From Escherichia coli (GTDB taxonomy: Bacteria; Pseudomonadota; Gammaproteobacteria; Enterobacterales; Enterobacteriaceae), in NCBI RefSeq assembly GCF_041248615.1, contig NZ_CP158426.1: DNA of 64,000 nucleotides; one strand, 5' to 3'. This document shows, piece by piece, positions 50,923 to 57,840 of the stretch. Every line of letters begins with the position of its first letter. Position 1 is the first letter of the stretch. The notes beneath the pieces were generated by a model. The model was given only the letters and a program-made list of their open reading frames with translations, ran no database searches and was not told the origin of the DNA. Both the position numbers and the translations under genes were made by a program.

Positions 50923-51012
50923 GGAGAGATGCCGGAGCGGCTGAACGGACCGGTCTCGAAAACCGGAGTGGGGGCAACTCCACCGGGGGTTCAAATCCCC
51001 CTCTCTCCGCCA
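50923..51012 (+). tRNA. serU: tRNA-Ser (anticodon CGA)
   Basis: 90-nt GGAGAGATGCCGGAGCGGCTGAACGGACCGGTCTCGAAAACCGG...CCCCCTCTCTCCGCCA with long variable arm. Confidence 0.9.
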
Positions 51013-51064
51013 AAATTCAATCACTTACACATCATTAAGTCAGTGACAAAAATCACACTTGGAA

Positions 51065-52090
51065 TTACTTGGAATATTTTCTTGGAATATTTTCAGGTAA
51101 CGGGACATCAAGTGTTGGTGAAACTTTAACCTTCCTGTCATAGATTAGCACTTGCCCTTCGGTTTTGTGACCAGAGAAAAGTTGCTTATCCCGGCTGCTT
51201 CCTTCATAGTCTGAAATTCCTTTCGCCTTCAGATCATGAAAGGTGAAGTCGGTTAAAATACCTGAAATTTTTCCAGCACGATTTCTTGCATCTACCCACA
51301 TTTCGTTAAAGCCTTTGTACATATATCGGTTGCCGTATTGATTGCTGATCACATAGGCAGATTTTGGTAACTGTTTTGCTTTTTCGATCGCTGCCTGTAA
51401 TCGTGGACTCCATGCTTTTATCTGTTTTTTTCCGGTTTTCCCTTGCTGGATGAATATCCCGTCGTTTCCAATCTGTTCCCATTTCAGCGATAACACATCG
51501 GAAACCCTCGCTGCACACAGATAGGCAATTTCCATTGCGATAAAAACAGGAAGAGGTGCAACGCTTAATACTGCCTGGTATTCTTTGTCGGTTACATATC
51601 GTTCGCGGTTTTTGGCCTTGAATTTACTTACACCTGCACATGGGTTAGCCTTCACGTACCCTCGCTCATACCCCCAACTGTAAACACGGGACATACTGCT
51701 TTTTTCATGGTTGGCTTGCGTTTTACTCTGCTCCCCTCTTTTGTCCATGTATCGACGGATGTGTTCTGGTTTTATGGAATCCGCTGGTACCTTACCGAAT
51801 ACGGCAAGCAACTTTTTTTGATGTTGCAGATAATCTTTTTGTGTTCTTGGACTAAGGTCACTGTAATAGGCGCTGGCGAGGAATTTTTCCCACAAGCGAC
51901 CGAATGTCATTGCACGATCGCGATTATTTACAGTTTCCTCATACTTTTTCCATAAAGCAGCTAAACCATCCTTGATGGCGGTTAGTGTGACAGATTCTCT
52001 GGATGTTGGTTTCCATACATAACTATATTTATTTGGGTATACATTTGGAGGTAATTTTTCGTGTTCAGGATTTTTCCTTCGTCTTCCCAT
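51065..52090 (-). CDS. int: Phage tyrosine integrase (lambdoid prophage, serU-adjacent)
   Basis: 341 aa; 52 nt downstream of serU 3' end; followed by excisionase. Confidence 0.9.
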   Translation of the reverse strand: MGRRRKNPEHEKLPPNVYPNKYSYVWKPTSRESVTLTAIKDGLAALWKKYEETVNNRDRAMTFGRLWEKFLASAYYSDLSPRTQKDYLQHQKKLLAVFGKVPADSIKPEHIRRYMDKRGEQSKTQANHEKSSMSRVYSWGYERGYVKANPCAGVSKFKAKNRERYVTDKEYQAVLSVAPLPVFIAMEIAYLCAARVSDVLSLKWEQIGNDGIFIQQGKTGKKQIKAWSPRLQAAIEKAKQLPKSAYVISNQYGNRYMYKGFNEMWVDARNRAGKISGILTDFTFHDLKAKGISDYEGSSRDKQLFSGHKTEGQVLIYDRKVKVSPTLDVPLPENIPRKYSK

Positions 52091-52293
52091 CAGATCGCAC
52101 CAAAATTCGGCTCTACCTCGCGTGGTGGTAAAGTTTTATTGCAGGTAAATAGATCCCGGCTGACAATCGGTTTGCCACTACGATTGGTATAGAACGGAAG
52201 CCCGTTTTCCATTAACCATTTTCGCTGGTGGCTTGCATATTTGCAGCCCGTTAATATTAGCAATTCATCTTCGGTTAAAAATAAGCTGCTCAT
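52090..52293 (-). CDS. xis: Excisionase-like protein
   Basis: 67 aa; immediately upstream of integrase with 1-nt overlap. Confidence 0.65.
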   Translation of the reverse strand: MSSLFLTEDELLILTGCKYASHQRKWLMENGLPFYTNRSGKPIVSRDLFTCNKTLPPREVEPNFGAI

Positions 52294-52351
52294 AGCTATA
52301 TCTCATAACCGCCGCTAACTATATACGGTTAGCGGCAATTAGGGTTGAACA

Positions 52352-54793
52352 TTAAAAATCAGCCTGACTCGGGATCAGTTTTTGCCAGATAGCTGAAACG
52401 TATTTTGCCTGGTAACGAGCGTCATCAAGTGCATTATGGCGCTCACCTTCGAATGGAATAGCCGTTCTGGCATCGAAGTCTATGGCTTTCCCCAGCTCAA
52501 CGATTGTGCGTACATCGCGATCGTTGTAGTAACGCCACGGGCAGGGGATCCCCTGCCGTTCGTATGAACGGCGCAAAATCGTGTTGTCGAAGTTGGCTCC
52601 ATTTCCCCAAACCTGAACAAAAAATTCACCGGAGTTTTCGTCGATAAATTCCCGCAATTGTAACAGTGCATCATCTAACGGGATTTCATCGGTCATAATG
52701 GCAGATTGCGCTTCGCGTGATTGCTTAAGCCACCATTTAATGGTGTCCCGATCAATGACTCCGCCAGCAGTTTCCAGATCGATAGTCTTACTAAATTCCG
52801 GTCCCATATCTCCGGTTTGCGGATCGAAAAATATTGCACCTATTGAGATGATCGGGGCATCAGGATTTTTTCCCATGGTTTCAAGGTCGATCATTAGATG
52901 GTCACACGTCCTGCTGGTGGATGTGATTTCGTGATGACCGTTCACCTTAATTGGGTGATCTGCCGTCTCGCCAGTTTTATTATCGCTGGCGTGATGCTGA
53001 TTGCCGCCAGGGTTCTCCTTGTGTGGATGTTCAGCGCCTTCCATTTCCTCCGGATCATTTTCCTGAACTTCAACCTGATTCTCTTCATCGAATGTTTCCT
53101 GGTATGTTGCGTCGCCCATCACCGCGCCACAATCAGGGCAGTTGCCGCCACCGCTCTGACCGCAGGCGGTGCAGACTTTTTCCGGTTCCTGTTGCGCTAC
53201 TGGTTCGGATTGTTTCGTTTCTGGCTCGTTTTGTAACGCATTTGGGCTGTTTTGTTCCGCTTTTTGGTCGTTCCGTTCCGATTCATGCTGGTTCTGGTTC
53301 ACAGAATCGCGAGTCTGGATCCCCTTGACCCATTTCGGATCATTAGGGTCGCTAATCCCCTCAACAAATTCACCACGCGATACAGCAAGTAACTTATCGG
53401 CGTCAGGCTGGCTGATATTGGCTGCCTGCATAATTTTGTTTACTTCGTCAGCGGTGACTTTTACTTGGTTAGCGGAACTCACCTGCGACTGAGCATCCAG
53501 CGACTGCGCGTTCTGGCCATGTTCAGTTGTATCCGGTTCCATTGTTTCAGTTGTTGCCTGTTCACCTGCCATTGCGTCAGATGGTTGTGGTTTTTCTTCT
53601 TCTGTTTCACGCTCAGTAACCACCTCGCGGTTAATTTCTTCCAGGATATCTTTTTCCGGCGTATGCCGGGCAGCTGTGAGAGTTTCCTTGCTGGGGTTCT
53701 CGTGATCAGTTTCCGTCAAATAGGCGTTGATATACCCCTGAAGGCGTCCCGGGTAGTGATAAAATTCAGGGTGTGCGCTTCGGATAAGTGCAAAAATAGC
53801 GGCGCGGGAATAGTCCAGAATACCCGGGGTTGCACGAAGTGCTGCGGACCATTCTTTGAACGGACTTTCTTTGTTCAGGACTACTTCTTTTGCGCGACGA
53901 TAAACGCTGCCCGGAATTTCATAAATATTAAAATCCATCGGAAGTGTGGCTGCTGCAATCTCCACATCCAGTGTGTCGAGGGTGTGTACTAAATTCGGAT
54001 TGCGATCGGTTTTGTTCCCACCGCCAGCATTAGCACCGGAAGCCGTGCGGGTGATGCGTGAAACACGATTTCCTTTCATCCACTCTTTTGTCAGCAGACC
54101 CCGATCAGTGTAGTCAGCGTCCAGGTATGCTTCGAAAAAAGCAGTTATTAGTCCCAGGTCTGAATTACCAGGATTAGGGAAAACTTTGTCAGTGTCACGA
54201 ACCAGTTTGTGGAGGTCGCGAATCTCCAGCGAGTCGAGCAGACTGGTTTTATGCGAAATAGCCAGGGCAGTAACAGCCGGTAGTTCTTCAGCCCGTGCAA
54301 TGTGTAATGCCTGGAGTTCGTCGCGTGAAACGTGCGTTACTGGTTTTTCGCTGCCGTGTTGAGCAAGCCAACGAATGGGCAGTTCCTGACCGGAGACAGG
54401 CAGAAGCATGCTCTCCTCAATCTCAGTCATGTCTTCGCCGTTGATGTTGGTATTGTCAGTGCTGGCTGGTTTGTCCTGAACAGAGGGGGAAGGGCCGATA
54501 AATGTCATTGTGATGCCATCTTTCCCGCCTTTTTCATAGCGGTTGCAGAATTCAGTATCAAACACGCCTTCTGGCGGAAGGTCGTCAACAACGGGCAAAT
54601 TGACGCGGACGGGTTTTTTAAAGTCGTCTTCATCATAATCGTTGTCATCCATTGCGGTAATGCAGCGGGAGATTGCAACAGATAATTTTTTTGCTGTAGT
54701 CCAGTAAAAACCACCTTTAATTCCCAGGCGTTTTCTTACTTTGTCATTTTTTGCTTCGCAATATAGTGCAAATTCTTCTTTATCAGTGCTCAT
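52352..54793 (-). CDS. Prophage exonuclease with C-terminal DEDD-type 3'-5' exonuclease domain
   Basis: C-terminal motifs [32 protein letters not shown] (DnaQ-like Exo I-III); central zinc-ribbon CTACGQ...CPDCG; 813 aa. Confidence 0.65.
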
Positions 54794-54886
54794 TATTGGT
54801 AAACCTCATCACAGATTTAAGGGTGAACAAATCTCTGCCATTGCTGACATATAAGAATGAAACTGGATATTTATTACGGTGCTGTT

Positions 54887-55078
54887 TTAAAATCCTGCCG
54901 GGATTTCGTTATTATCCTGGTGAATAACTTTATCGACCGGATAACAGTTGCCTGGAATTTTCTGTTCGGTTGCTGCTGCCATACATTCCTGCTTTGTTCT
55001 GTGAACACTGACTGCAATATCAACTGGCCCTCCGGAAACAAGAAAAACCGTCAGAATAAGTGCAAATACTGGATTCAT
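54887..55078 (-). CDS. ydfD: YdfD-like small prophage protein
   Basis: 63-aa product from MNPVFALILTVFLVSGG; ATGA overlap with dicB stop. Confidence 0.6.
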   Translation of the reverse strand: MNPVFALILTVFLVSGGPVDIAVSVHRTKQECMAAATEQKIPGNCYPVDKVIHQDNNEIPAGF

Positions 55079-55263
55079 TGTGCACATCCTTTTGGCATCA
55101 GACGTAAACGGGCCAGCATTGAAACAATGCATACTTTATTTAATAACTCCCGTTCGTGTTTTCTTTTGTTAATGGCATCTTCAGTAAATACAGGATTACT
55201 GATAGTGACACCAATTTCAAAACAACCTTCAGACGTATTAACGTTTGGTAATAACGTTTTCAT
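55075..55263 (-). CDS. dicB: Cell division inhibitor DicB
   Basis: 62-aa product MKTLLPNVNTSEGCFEIGVTISNPVFTEDAINKRK...MLARLRLMPKGCAQ matching recalled DicB. Confidence 0.8.
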   Translation of the reverse strand: MKTLLPNVNTSEGCFEIGVTISNPVFTEDAINKRKHERELLNKVCIVSMLARLRLMPKGCAQ

Positions 55264-55437
55264 TATCGCGCCCTCAACAATGAGTTTTGTGATGCGGTGC
55301 CTGGTGCCTCCAGGTGACGTTAACCAGTTAACAATTAACGCCGGATACAGAGAATCCACCCATAACACTGTTTTTGGTTTTAACTGTTCCGCGTGCGCTT
55401 AGCCGCATTCACCGCATCACAAAATTCACTTTAAAAA

Positions 55438-55490
55438 GGGCGGCAGAGCAGTCACGGAGTAAAACTGATACCGCCAAACGTCACCAGAAA
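55438..55490 (-). ncRNA. dicF: DicF small regulatory RNA
   Basis: Minus-strand sequence TTTCTGGTGACGTTTGGCGGTATCAGTTTTACTCCGTGACTGCTCTGCCGCCC followed by a T-run; matches recalled DicF; lies between ydfC and dicB. Confidence 0.8.
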
Positions 55491-55830
55491 ATTGATAACA
55501 GAGGGCGTTGCAGCGGGGTTGTCACTTAAGCGTATGGTCAACCTGACAACCCGGTGTCCTCAACGGGGAAGGAATAACCCCGCCATACTTACCGCCGCGC
55601 CATTTCGCGGAGTGCCACAACCGGAAGCGCACGGTCGACGAAAATTTAACGACAGGCTATCTATGAACCAGCTACCTCGCCGTGCGCTTTCGCGTTATGG
55701 TCTGACTTTTCAGGGAAATATCCTTTCAGTAAACTGTCAGTGCCGGATGCTCACCCGTGTCCGGCGCACGCACTCCACCTCACCCGTGGAGAACTCCTTA
55801 ATTACCAACCTTAGCTTCGTTGGTTAGCTA

Positions 55831-56049
55831 TTAACGCGGGTATGTAATCATTCTGGCAATGCTTAATGCCGCTGCTTTTTCCAGATTGGTGATATCCTGC
55901 TCCAGAGCGGACAGATTTTCAGCCTGCTTAGCCCTGGCTTCATTAGCCCATTTCAGATCCTGCGCTGCATTAATTTTCTGGCGCATCCACTCATAAAGTT
56001 CATCATCGGTATAGTCTGGCGCGATTATGACGGGTTCTCGTTTCTGCAT
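55831..56049 (-). CDS. ydfC: YdfC-like prophage protein
   Basis: 72-aa ORF upstream of dicF in the dicB operon. Confidence 0.6.
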   Translation of the reverse strand: MQKREPVIIAPDYTDDELYEWMRQKINAAQDLKWANEARAKQAENLSALEQDITNLEKAAALSIARMITYPR

Positions 56050-56078
56050 ACTGATTCCTCGCGGTGCTACTTCGCTTA

Positions 56079-56207
56079 TCAGCCGTTAGATTTTGCCGAG
56101 CTGGAAAGCGCCTGTTTAAACTCACTGAAGCTGAGAGCTTCTTCGCCTTCGGCAAGGTCTTCGAAGTATTCTTCGTAAGCCTTTTCCATGATTGTGTCGA
56201 AATCCAT
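56079..56207 (-). CDS. ydfB: YdfB-like small protein, 42 aa (not in ORF track)
   Basis: Hand-translated MDFDTIMEKAYEEYFEDLAEGEEALSFSEFKQALSSSAKSNG. Confidence 0.5.
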   Translation of the reverse strand: MDFDTIMEKAYEEYFEDLAEGEEALSFSEFKQALSSSAKSNG

Positions 56208-56208
56208 A

Positions 56209-56364
56209 TCACTCACCTGAGTTTCTTTCCAGCCAGCGACGGGCACCATTTTCGGTTTTAAACGTTTTGCTTTTGGTATACGTCATCGCGGTGAACGTGC
56301 CGTCCTGGTTGGGAAACACGCCGTACACCAGAGATTCGTTGTTGCCAAGATCGATAGTATCCAT
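56209..56364 (-). CDS. ydfA: YdfA-like small protein, 51 aa
   Basis: Internal start MDTIDLGNNESLVYGVFPNQDG within track ORF 56209..56445; start choice uncertain. Confidence 0.45.
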   Translation of the reverse strand: MDTIDLGNNESLVYGVFPNQDGTFTAMTYTKSKTFKTENGARRWLERNSGE

Positions 56365-56629
56365 GCTGACCTCATTTCCCCTTAACGCCGGGGTAGCGGA
56401 ACAAAAACCTGCTGCATAGTTATTAAAGTTGAACCCTGCCGTCATGTTCTTACGCCTCGGGCTGGCTACTTAACCCCTGACCACTGCCTGGTAACTCGAA
56501 GTATTGCCCTGCATTCTGTGGGGCGGGGTGGGTTGGTATGAAAAGAAGGATACCCATAGGTATTTAAAAAGTAAATACCCATGGGTAACTTTTTGCGGTG
56601 TCTTAACTGGTGACTAGTTGTTTGGTGAG

Positions 56630-57049
56630 CTATGATGCGTTTTGTGCTTTCTTTTTACGGATTTCTTCGTAGATCATATTGTAATACTGTTTTTTCTCTT
56701 CAAGAGTTTTTAATAAGTTATCCGCTTCACTTTCTGGCAGTTCGTCTAAGAGATCTAAAAAAATACGTTGTCGTGGCGTTAGAACCCTTGTTTCATAACT
56801 GGAGGCTGTGTTCGTTGATGATGAAACGATACCATCCATCCATCCCCGGGGTAACCCAAAGGACTCTTCGATAATCTCCACCATATCATCAGCGATCCGT
56901 TTTTTTCCCTTTTTCCCCTCTGGGTACAACATTCTTGATACATAAGAAGGCTCGCGCCCGATCTTTCTGGCCACGTTAACCGCTTTACCATCGCATTTCT
57001 CATCACGAATTTTGATGAGTTGCTGTCGTCTAAATTCATATTTGTCCAT
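56630..57049 (-). CDS. Prophage repressor-like HTH protein (XRE/CI-like)
   Basis: 139 aa; HTH-like NVARKIGREPSYVSRML; divergent from Cro-like gene. Confidence 0.6.
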   Translation of the reverse strand: MDKYEFRRQQLIKIRDEKCDGKAVNVARKIGREPSYVSRMLYPEGKKGKKRIADDMVEIIEESFGLPRGWMDGIVSSSTNTASSYETRVLTPRQRIFLDLLDELPESEADNLLKTLEEKKQYYNMIYEEIRKKKAQNAS

Positions 57050-57149
57050 AGGTAAATAATAGATGCGATTACCGCAAGGTAAACAACCTGTGGGTATTGA
57101 CTTTTGTTTACCTGCGGGTATTCTTTACTGTGTTTACTAAGGAGTAGCT

Positions 57150-57431
57150 ATGGAAGAATTAAGAATATTTCTCAATTCTCTTTCGTCAGATGAACAGCGT
57201 ATGTTTGCATGCGAGTGTGGTACCAGCATCGGTTATCTAAGAAAGGCATTGAGTAAAGGTCAAGTGTTAGGGGCATCGTTATGTGTCCTTATTGAGCGAG
57301 CCAGTAATGGTGAAGTTACACGTCAGCAACTAAGGCCTTTTGATTGGATGAATATTTGGCCCGAGCTGGAAGATACCAAAACGTTAACACAACCACTTTC
57401 TAGGAGCTTGATTCATGAAAATCAAGCATGA
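57150..57431 (+). CDS. Cro-like / YdaS-family small regulator
   Basis: 93 aa; divergent from repressor; followed by YdaT-like gene, as in Rac-type immunity regions. Confidence 0.55.
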   Translation: MEELRIFLNSLSSDEQRMFACECGTSIGYLRKALSKGQVLGASLCVLIERASNGEVTRQQLRPFDWMNIWPELEDTKTLTQPLSRSLIHENQA

Positions 57432-57840
57432 ACACATCCGCATGGCGATGAATGCCTGGGCGCATCCGGACGGTGAAAAAGTTCCGGCAGCTGAAATAAC
57501 CAGGGCTTATTTTGAACTGGGTATGACGTTCCCAGAACTGTATGACGACAGCCATCCGGAAGCCCTGGCTCGCAATACCCAGAAAATTTTCCGCTGGGTA
57601 GAGAAAGACACCCCTGATGCAGTTGAAAAAATTCAGGCGTTGTTACCAGCGATCGAAAAGGCAATGCCACCTTTGCTGGTGGCCAGAATGCGCAGCCACA
57701 GTTCAGCTTATTTTCGGGAACTGGTGGAGACGCGGGAGCGACTGGTGAGAGACGCTGATGATTTTGTCGCAGTGGCAATCGCCGGTTTCAATCAGATGAA
57801 CCGTGGTGGCCCGGCAGGAAATGCTGTGGCAGTACATTGA
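57415..57840 (+). CDS. YdaT-family prophage protein
   Basis: N-terminus MKIKHEHI resembles recalled YdaT; 141 aa. Confidence 0.6.
   Translation: MKIKHEHIRMAMNAWAHPDGEKVPAAEITRAYFELGMTFPELYDDSHPEALARNTQKIFRWVEKDTPDAVEKIQALLPAIEKAMPPLLVARMRSHSSAYFRELVETRERLVRDADDFVAVAIAGFNQMNRGGPAGNAVAVH

Follow-up and report, generated by a model that had tools for sequence, protein, structure and literature searches.

The dicBF operon analysed here is most probably (probability about 0.87) an early-left operon of the PL type, a Qin module in a lambdoid prophage at tRNA-Ser that is held off by the adjacent 139-aa repressor and has a Kil-like effect on derepression. In its make-up it is an ordinary dicBF operon, fully intact and of the kind well known from E. 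coli prophages and already described in the literature, and its repressor is heteroimmune relative to K-12 DicA. The value of the analysis lies mainly in annotation: it is now fixed on which strand a toxic prophage module lies, where its boundaries are and that it is intact, and a dicBF copy is seen to be wired to a heteroimmune repressor that has so far been annotated just as "hypothetical".

The operon and its prophage

Within the window, by which we mean the whole 64-kb stretch of DNA analysed, the genes lie in the Qin-type order ydfA, ydfB, ydfC, DicF, dicB and a ydfD-like gene, all on one strand (Table 1). The preliminary description had listed ydfA-, ydfB- and ydfC-like ORFs, DicF with a T-run, dicB and a ydfD-like gene with a stop/start overlap, and every one of them was found, on the minus strand, which it had not specified; the overlap is an ATGA shared by the dicB TGA and the ydfD-like ATG. 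Its range, 55075-56364, correctly covers ydfA to dicB, but it stops at the dicB stop codon and so excludes the ydfD-like gene. When the operon was aligned to K-12, its claim of intactness also held: neither DicF nor DicB is disrupted, and all five small ORFs have the K-12 lengths, with 0, 1, 0, 2 and 9 amino acid differences in the above order. DicB matches Pfam PF05358 (E 5e-40, 135.4 bits against a cutoff of 27) and NCBIfam NF049927 (134.3 bits, cutoff 100), both over positions 1-62 of 62 in an uninterrupted 62-aa ORF, and 60 of its 62 residues (97%) are identical to K-12. The two substitutions, Q36H and I44V, are a caveat on carrying over the K-12 function.

Table 1. Features of the operon and its surroundings, in window coordinates
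Feature	Position	Strand	Remarks
tRNA-Ser(cga)	50923..51012		adjoins integrase end of prophage
DUF4224 (xis-position) gene and tyrosine integrase	51065..52293	-	left end of prophage
Exonuclease	52352..54793	-	813 aa; full-length counterpart of truncated K-12 ydfE
ydfD-like gene	55078..54887	-	63 aa; 9 differences vs K-12; Pfam DUF1482
dicB	55263..55075	-	62 aa; Q36H and I44V vs K-12
DicF-dicB spacer	55279..55430	-	conserved, structured; sub-threshold Rfam STnc100 match
DicF sRNA	55490..55438, 53 nt	-	Rfam RF00039; T5 run at 55437..55433
ydfC-dicF spacer	55491..55830	-	5' precursor region of DicF; 97.7% identical to K-12
ydfC	56049..55831	-	72 aa; 0 differences vs K-12
ydfB	56207..56079	-	42 aa; 1 difference vs K-12
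ydfA (DUF1391)	56364..56209	-	51 aa; 0 aa differences vs K-12
Leader	56365..56540, about 175 nt	-	predicted start to ydfA ATG
OL-like operator pair	56547..56587	-	TACC-N4-GGTA at 56551 and 56576, 25 bp apart
Candidate PL promoter	-35 TTTACT 56575..56570, -10 TATCCT 56552..56547	-	near-identity to PR-like promoter
Prophage repressor	56630..57049	-	139 aa; PGAP label: hypothetical protein
PRM-like promoter	57083..57056	-	overlaps OR-like cluster
OR-like operator cluster	57070..57120	.	TACC-N4-GGTA at 57070, 57085 (1 mismatch), 57109
PR-like promoter	TTGACT 57097, TATTCT 57119	+	overlaps OR-like cluster
Divergent cro-like gene (93 aa) and cII-like/YdaT-family gene (141 aa)	57150..57840	+	

A near-complete lambdoid prophage at tRNA-Ser, with genes for immunity, replication, Q, lysis, an HK97-type head and a lambda-type tail, has the operon as its early-left unit. 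The 813-aa exonuclease probably follows as the next gene of this leftward unit and would be co-transcribed with it. This layout is that of the lambda PL operon with kil and of P22 immC, in which the repressor gene likewise lies between OR and OL with a divergent cro/cII pair, and the leftward early operon encodes a small division inhibitor and then recombination, exonuclease, xis and int genes. Unlike lambda and P22, the prophage here has no N homologue, its leader shows no boxA/nut-like site by eye, its repressor lacks an S24 domain, and division would be blocked by an sRNA and DicB instead of Kil.

The closest relative in make-up is the operon of K-12 Qin (ydfABC-dicF-dicB-ydfDE under DicA/DicC), which has the same gene order, ORF lengths and DicF and, as here, lies directly downstream of an immunity repressor gene of the same orientation. 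However, the repressor, the cro-like gene, the operators, the promoter and most of the leader of Qin are unrelated to those in the window; homology starts 38 nt before ydfA, so that just the last 38 nt of the leader are in common with K-12 (mosaic junctions), while the leader as a whole is common to most other dicBF loci. The Qin operators are of the TGTTAG..CTAACA type and not TACC-N4-GGTA, and with promoter and operator DNA unrelated to K-12, DicA/DicC control through their own operators does not apply here. Qin is moreover a cryptic remnant with a truncated downstream exonuclease, whereas the prophage here is near-complete and its exonuclease full-length. Prophages of EHEC O157:H7 and other E. 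coli have multiple dicF/dicBF copies, and the operon here is one more case of that module, in a different lambdoid prophage. The operon is 100% identical in strain 201609, from which the window departs beyond 59.5 kb (BLAST), and positions 51000-64000 were matched at 100% in strain SJC33 and four other genomes. The complete ydfABC set, present here, occurs in just 50 of 106 surveyed IMG/VR loci.

The adjacent repressor and its putative operators

As judged from sequence comparisons, the repressor is a chimera that consists of a CI-type DNA-binding head (aa 1-74) and a DicA-like tail (aa 86-136), with no S24 peptidase domain. Its family was settled by a homologue search and not by Pfam or solved-structure searches: no Pfam match, Peptidase_S24 included, appeared even at E up to 5, and a sequence search against solved structures returned winged-helix matches alone, all non-significant (E 0.08 and above). 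The protein matches PHROG 5736 "transcriptional regulator" (E 4e-70). Its aa 1-88 are 75% identical to the S24-type repressor P0047, and the head also resembles many homologues of 221-242 aa that carry PF00717, while aa 86-136 match DicA positions 81-131 with 33% identity over 46 aa. We ruled out that the repressor is DicA itself, because the similarity is limited to this 46-aa C-terminal stretch and the score against NCBIfam NF007257 (DicA; E 2.8e-5, 23.9 bits) is under the cutoff of 101. It has the N-terminal DNA-binding domain of CI/LexA-type (S24) repressors but not their C-terminal S24 self-cleavage domain, and with its short length, its lack of a cleavage domain and its DicA-like C-terminal region it agrees with the short, antirepressor-controlled type (DicA/Gifsy). 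From members of that type, GfoR/GfoA and DicA/Rem, which are also short, S24-free and DicA-like in their tails, it differs in that its N-terminal domain is an S24-type CI head and not the HTH_3 of DicA, and in that no antirepressor was found in the prophage sequence examined. The repressor is a heteroimmune chimera distinct from DicA, so K-12 findings on control by DicA, DicC and Rem are not simply transferable and should not be assumed, although those on the operon products should carry over.

The preliminary description had also suggested that the operon is repressed by this neighbouring protein, and comparison now lends that suggestion strong support. The exact motif TACC-N4-GGTA occurs six times in 64 kb, and four of these sites, plus one with a single mismatch, fall within the ~160 bp flanking the repressor gene (Poisson P about 3e-11), where they are clustered over the PL- and PR-like promoters. 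The PL region nearly duplicates the PR region, and in each of them one operator overlaps the -10 and another abuts the -35. The same motif, OL pair and spacing, and -35/-10 layout were found at Salmonella (L005-7) and Klebsiella (L008-10) loci, whose repressors have the N-terminal domain in common with the 139-aa repressor and differ from it in their C-terminal domains and downstream genes; motif and DNA-binding domain thus co-occur. TACC-N4-GGTA is therefore the likely operator of the 139-aa repressor. The assignment opens to cheap tests an immunity type that about 15% of complete E. coli genomes carry, O157:H7 genomes included (PMC5069750 Fig. 9). The PL hexamers are weak, agreeing at 8 of 12 positions and scoring under the promoter-scan threshold; transcription of the operon would start near 56540. 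A put- or nut-like structured RNA in the PL leader was considered and rejected, because the leader folds no better than shuffled sequence (z = +1.1), has no Rfam match and shows no boxA by eye.

Predicted control and alternative readings

We infer the following course for repressor binding, start site, processing and phenotypes. In the lysogen, the 139-aa repressor would occupy the TACC-N4-GGTA operators over the leftward -35/-10 and over PR/PRM and thereby silence the operon. Once derepressed, it would give a polycistronic RNA that starts near 56540; part of the transcripts would stop at the DicF terminator and be trimmed by RNases E and III to the 53-nt DicF, which would base-pair with ftsZ and other mRNAs, while read-through transcripts would allow translation of DicB and YdfD. 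DicB together with MinC would block septation, DicB would also inhibit ManYZ, and YdfD would act as a lysis protein; transcription would probably run on into the exonuclease, the xis-position gene and int. The expected outcome is that division is blocked in a Kil-like manner, with toxicity if the block lasts. For K-12, published work describes how the repressor next to dicBp represses it, and also processing, toxicity, filamentation and protection from phages (PMC10448788, PMC5069750, PMC6832061), and because DicF is identical and DicB 97% identical, the toxicity and the effect on phage susceptibility may be carried over by analogy from that work.

Three other readings have to be weighed against repression of a phage operon by its neighbour. 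The module may, like that of Qin in K-12, be a domesticated remnant that serves the host, kept for phage exclusion by DicB and regulation by DicF with no working phage programme, and we give this a modest chance. It agrees with the retention of the operon, as similar DNA, in 4763 of 5426 complete E. coli genomes, often in multiple copies, and with the host benefits (PMC6832061) and stationary-phase accumulation of DicF (PMC10448788) in K-12. NCBI PGAP flags the integrase as frameshifted, so that the prophage may lack full activity; however, the integrase ORF is 341 aa long and matches the catalytic-domain profile, a full set of genes for immunity, replication, Q, lysis, head and tail is present, and the same operon is carried by isolated temperate phages. 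A remnant and a phage operon are not mutually exclusive.

The other two readings concern the control of the operon. The palindrome pair at 56551-56587 could be no operator but the intrinsic terminator of the repressor gene, which would leave the operon free of the adjacent repressor, and indeed the scan lists a minus-strand hairpin of 16 pairs with a T-rich tail, 43 nt past the repressor stop codon. We regard this as very unlikely, since each arm is a 12-bp palindrome that is also present three times at the PR/PRM region and the flanks duplicate the PR -35/-10 layout. Furthermore, the Salmonella pair lies ~760 bp from the repressor gene, past two opposite-strand genes and still ahead of the leftward genes, and the Klebsiella pair precedes an N-like gene. 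Very unlikely as well is that DicF and/or dicB are driven by an internal promoter of their own, independent of the immunity region. In its favour is an earlier description, cited in PMC10448788, of a promoter upstream of dicB, but primer extension and Northern blots in K-12 showed none (PMC10448788), the operon spacers are 97-98% identical to K-12, and no promoter-like site was detected on the minus strand from 54700 to 56540 at the scan threshold.

If the adjacent repressor controls the operon, the induction signal would probably be an antirepressor and not RecA-stimulated self-cleavage, by analogy with DicA and Rem, because the repressor has no S24 domain. The prophage part of the window has just three LexA sites with one mismatch, all of them inside coding regions, and no LexA box of exact consensus; L003, which stops among the tail genes, has no exact box either. 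The prophage sequence covered, which stops short of the right prophage end, also yielded no antirepressor candidate; at the position equivalent to rem, which is present in Qin, no Rem homologue but a gene for an unrelated 130-aa lipoprotein was seen. A speculative and rather unlikely proposal is that the repressor is a natural domain swap whose DicA-like tail, if it is what antirepressors such as Rem recognise, could put prophages of different immunities under one induction signal; were this true, a co-resident Qin-like element could switch on the dicBF operon without RecA cleavage. That the head, coming from SOS-cleavable CI repressors, sets the immunity specificity (TACC-N4-GGTA) in such a swap is a suggestion we hold just as doubtfully.

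DicF and the spacers around it

DicF scored 76.7 bits against Rfam RF00039 (gathering score 48, E 3.6e-15) over model positions 1-52 of 52, and in the alignment it is identical to K-12 DicF through the T5 run and beyond. The terminator stem is paired in the covariance-model alignment with T5 next to it, although a simple terminator scan did not flag it, because the stem is interrupted. In K-12, DicF pairs in antisense with the ftsZ mRNA leader and represses it with the help of Hfq (PMC5069750), and solely from the 100% identity of the two RNAs we infer that the DicF here could do the same. K-12 DicF is cut from a 5' precursor region in the ydfC-dicF spacer, as processing data have shown (PMC10448788); the spacer here gave a fold z of -2.5.

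On the other side of DicF, the DicF-dicB spacer can form a long-range duplex of ~21 bp around ~110 nt. Membership of this spacer in STnc100 (RF02076) was rejected, as the match has 38.8 bits against a gathering score of 47 (E 2.6e-6) and covers positions 21-154 of 206 only. That the structured element directly 3' of DicF is nonetheless a divergent relative of the STnc100/PasD prophage sRNAs, and one that moves together with DicF and not with dicB, is a further, rather unlikely proposal.

The operon and its K-12 counterpart

A run of small minus-strand genes is visible at 53500-57500 by sequence reading and ORF listing, and the ORFs, Rfam and an alignment with Qin as present in a K-12-derived genome bear out the gene set named in a preliminary description, namely ydfA, ydfB, ydfC, DicF, dicB and a ydfD-like gene. 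That description was right on the genes but lacked the strand, and its range of 55075-56364 covers the operon down to the dicB stop codon, so that the ydfD-like gene falls outside.

Features of the prophage part of the window
Feature	Position	Strand	Remark
tRNA-Ser(cga)	50923..51012		first in listed gene order
integrase	51040-52090	-	341-aa ORF in window; frameshifted according to PGAP
DUF4224 gene			between integrase and exonuclease genes
exonuclease	52352-54793	-	813 aa; between DUF4224 gene and ydfD-like gene
ydfD-like	55078..54887	-	63 aa, 9 differences from K-12
dicB	55263..55075	-	62 aa, 2 differences from K-12 (Q36H, I44V)
spacer element	55279-55430	-	predicted duplex arms near 55410-55430 and 55279-55299
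DicF	55490..55438	-	53 nt
ydfC	56049..55831	-	72 aa, 0 differences from K-12
ydfB	56207..56079	-	42 aa, 1 difference from K-12
ydfA	56364..56209	-	51 aa, 0 differences from K-12
candidate PL, -10 TATCCT	56552..56547	-	
candidate PL, -35 TTTACT	56575..56570	-	
TACC-N4-GGTA, operon side	56551, 56576		
repressor	56630-57049	-	139 aa, annotated hypothetical protein
TACC-N4-GGTA, cro side	57070, 57085, 57109		
FRG-domain gene	59702-61036	-	444 aa
hok/sok	61662-61986	+	hokD annotated at 61831-61986
lipoprotein gene	62130-62522	+	predicted, 130 aa

The reported overlap between the dicB stop and the ydfD start is present as ATGA. DicB matched Pfam PF05358 and NCBIfam NF049927 over the full length, both over cutoff, while family scans placed YdfA in DUF1391 and the YdfD-like protein in DUF1482. 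At gathering thresholds Rfam returned a single DicF (RF00039; 55489..55438, minus strand; 76.7 bits versus a gathering score of 48, E 3.6e-15, full model covered), and both its 53 nt and the downstream TTTTTAAAGTGAATTTTG, the T-run of the preliminary description, are completely identical to K-12. The suggested alignment check for a disrupted DicF or DicB found the former identical and the latter at its 62 aa with two substitutions; in the two non-coding spacers, identity to K-12 is 97.7% and 97.1%. The operon observation is confirmed.

Because of this sequence identity the product functions are carried over from K-12. DicF represses ftsZ, xylR and pykA and is toxic when overexpressed (PMC5069750), DicB guards against phages that use ManYZ (PMC6832061), and YdfD is cited as a lysis protein in PMC10448788.

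Probable control by the adjacent repressor

The 64-kb window contains six exact copies of the 12-bp palindrome TACC-N4-GGTA. Four of them, and a further site with one mismatch, fall within two short regions on either side of the gene for the 139-aa repressor. At the exact-site rate outside the two regions, these 160 bp should contain about 0.005 exact sites (P about 3e-11). The cro-side sites overlap a PR-like promoter (plus strand, TTGACT-16-TATTCT) and, on the minus strand, a PRM-like promoter; the operon-side region near-duplicates the PR-like promoter, as seen in the aligned sequences (PR, GGGTATTGACTTTTGTTTACCTGCGGGTATTCT; PL, GGGTATTTACTTTTTAAATACCTATGGGTATCCT). In the candidate PL one palindrome overlaps the -10 element and the other abuts the -35 element.

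We compared this layout with three Salmonella and three Klebsiella contigs, which encode two S24-type homologues of the repressor. The palindrome was found on both sides of the repressor gene in all six loci, and the leftward sites were always paired at a spacing of 25-26 bp, with the same -35/-10 pattern embedded, so that the layout is kept despite differing C-terminal domains and downstream genes. The operon-side pair reads as a hairpin in a terminator/promoter scan and could be taken as merely the terminator of the repressor gene, but in Salmonella two opposite-strand genes separate the pair from the repressor gene, which argues against this reading. As to gene content, one Salmonella locus has Lambda_Kil and pentapeptide genes in its leftward operon, whereas the Klebsiella operon has an N-like gene; in two of the Salmonella loci a ParE toxin gene separates the repressor gene from OL.

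The operators of the 139-aa repressor can be assigned with confidence at the level of prediction, and the operators, the PL/PR duplication, the six-locus comparison, the mosaic junctions (below) and the lack of internal promoter-like sites together give strong in-silico support to the earlier suggestion that the operon is under this adjacent repressor, which would act on transcription from the promoter upstream of ydfA. A promoter scan found no promoter-like site inside the operon on the minus strand, and K-12 experiments likewise found no internal promoter (PMC10448788). In K-12, deletion of dicA raises transcription from the promoter upstream of ydfA 22-fold, and derepression leads to filamentation via DicF and DicB (PMC10448788).

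The repressor falls in PHROG 5736 ('transcriptional regulator', E 4e-70) and has no Pfam match, whereas DicA has a clear HTH_3 domain. Its identification as DicA was rejected, because only a C-terminal stretch aligns (residues 89-134, 33% identity, E 1e-7) and the NCBIfam DicA model matches residues 86-136 far under its cutoff (E 2.8e-5). In a homologue search, residues 1 to ~74 shared 64-82% identity with the N-terminal ends of numerous repressors of 221-242 aa, each with a Peptidase_S24 domain, in Salmonella, Edwardsiella, Yersinia, Klebsiella and Pantoea; the match to the DNA-binding head of S24/LexA-type CI repressors is at about 75% identity. Family scans found no S24 domain in the 139-aa protein. 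Since the head matches S24-type repressors, the tail matches DicA and no Pfam domain is found, we infer that the repressor is a chimera of an SOS-cleavable CI-type DNA-binding head and a DicA-type tail, without the cleavage domain. In place of DicA, a heteroimmune chimeric repressor would control this copy of the operon.

We found no exact-consensus LexA box in the prophage part of the window, nor in the 49-kb locus of strain SJC33, which ends within the tail genes. At the slot equivalent to that of the antirepressor gene rem in Qin, Rem is absent; the predicted lipoprotein encoded there (MKKLVLVAGVMIATVMLGGC...) has no Rem similarity. It is unlikely that the DicA-like tail makes heteroimmune prophages answer to a shared antirepressor.

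Mosaic junction and distribution

Most other genomes and phages share sequence only leftwards from about 56528-56544, a sharp junction exactly at the inferred PL transcription start; in most other dicBF loci and phages the 175-nt leader is shared and the operators and repressor are not, while in K-12 the shared part of the leader is limited to the 38 nt directly before ydfA. Judged by these junctions, the immunity cassette, together with its operators and promoter, is swapped as one block in front of a transcribed module that is conserved. Close to the full length of this immunity module (the repressor gene plus the regions on either side) was found in 821 of 5426 complete E. coli genomes.

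Megablast of 54880-56450 detected operon-like DNA in 4763 of the same 5426 genomes, at a median of two and a maximum of ten places per genome, with one place covering at least 80% of the query in 2490. The operon is also found in 60 deposited phage records, isolated temperate and Stx-converting phages among them (DicF is annotated explicitly in one), and the exact 38-nt DicF core in at least 120 IMG/VR contigs. Among the 106 DicF contigs with enough flank, ydfA, ydfB and ydfC were all present in 50, and the upstream repressor was the one described here in 14, true DicA in 5, DicA-like in 19, a 39%-identical relative in 10, and other or undetected in 58. The wide spread among different prophages has been described (PMC5069750), and the operon, whose configuration is very common, is a textbook prophage module that RefSeq and Rfam already annotate.

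The spacer between DicF and dicB contains a conserved structured element with a predicted long-range duplex of ~21 bp. In an alignment of 49 distinct variants the duplex is kept almost entirely via G-U changes with very few pairs broken, and at one pair (columns 18/156) 2 sequences have a compensatory change; part of the interior can be replaced. Because variants with other genes in place of dicB break directly after the 3' arm, the element travels with DicF, not dicB. By its length the duplex would be an RNase III substrate and may correspond to the K-12 site of this enzyme. An alternative DicF 3' end made by RNase III is cited in PMC5069750. At relaxed thresholds Rfam matched STnc100 at 55426..55286 (38.8 bits versus a gathering score of 47, E 2.6e-6, model positions 21-154 of 206), which is under threshold, and family membership is not claimed. 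STnc100 has recently been linked to PasD prophage sRNAs (bioRxiv 10.64898/2026.05.13.724894).

Prophage context

The window is E. coli DNA; its region 51000-64000 is 100% identical to SJC33 and four further complete genomes, and gene order was taken from the SJC33 RefSeq annotation together with family scans. The element is a near-complete lambdoid prophage, in which the operon occupies the place of lambda's PL operon. The integrase gene adjoins tRNA-Ser and, despite the PGAP flag, still matches the Phage_integrase catalytic-domain profile. The exonuclease has an N-terminal region like Exonuc_VIII and, at the C-terminus, an Rv2179c-like 3'-5' exonuclease domain; its gene is intact, whereas the K-12 counterpart is the truncated pseudogene ydfE. 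The operon follows, from the ydfD-like gene to ydfA, and then the repressor gene. On the strand opposite to the repressor lie cro-like, cII-like/YdaT-family, replication initiator and DUF977 genes; next along are the FRG-domain gene, hok/sok, the lipoprotein gene, DUF968, RusA and Q, and past the window end tRNAs, lysis genes, terminase, an HK97-type head and a lambda-type tail.

Strain 201609 has a 100% identical operon, but its sequence departs from the window past 59.5 kb, and a QueH gene there replaces the FRG-domain gene. The latter, which lies on the minus strand with the replication genes on one side and hok/sok on the other, resembles an exchangeable moron and is possibly a defence gene. 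The neighbouring hok/sok is a type I toxin-antitoxin locus, with sok matching RF01794 at 111.7 bits.
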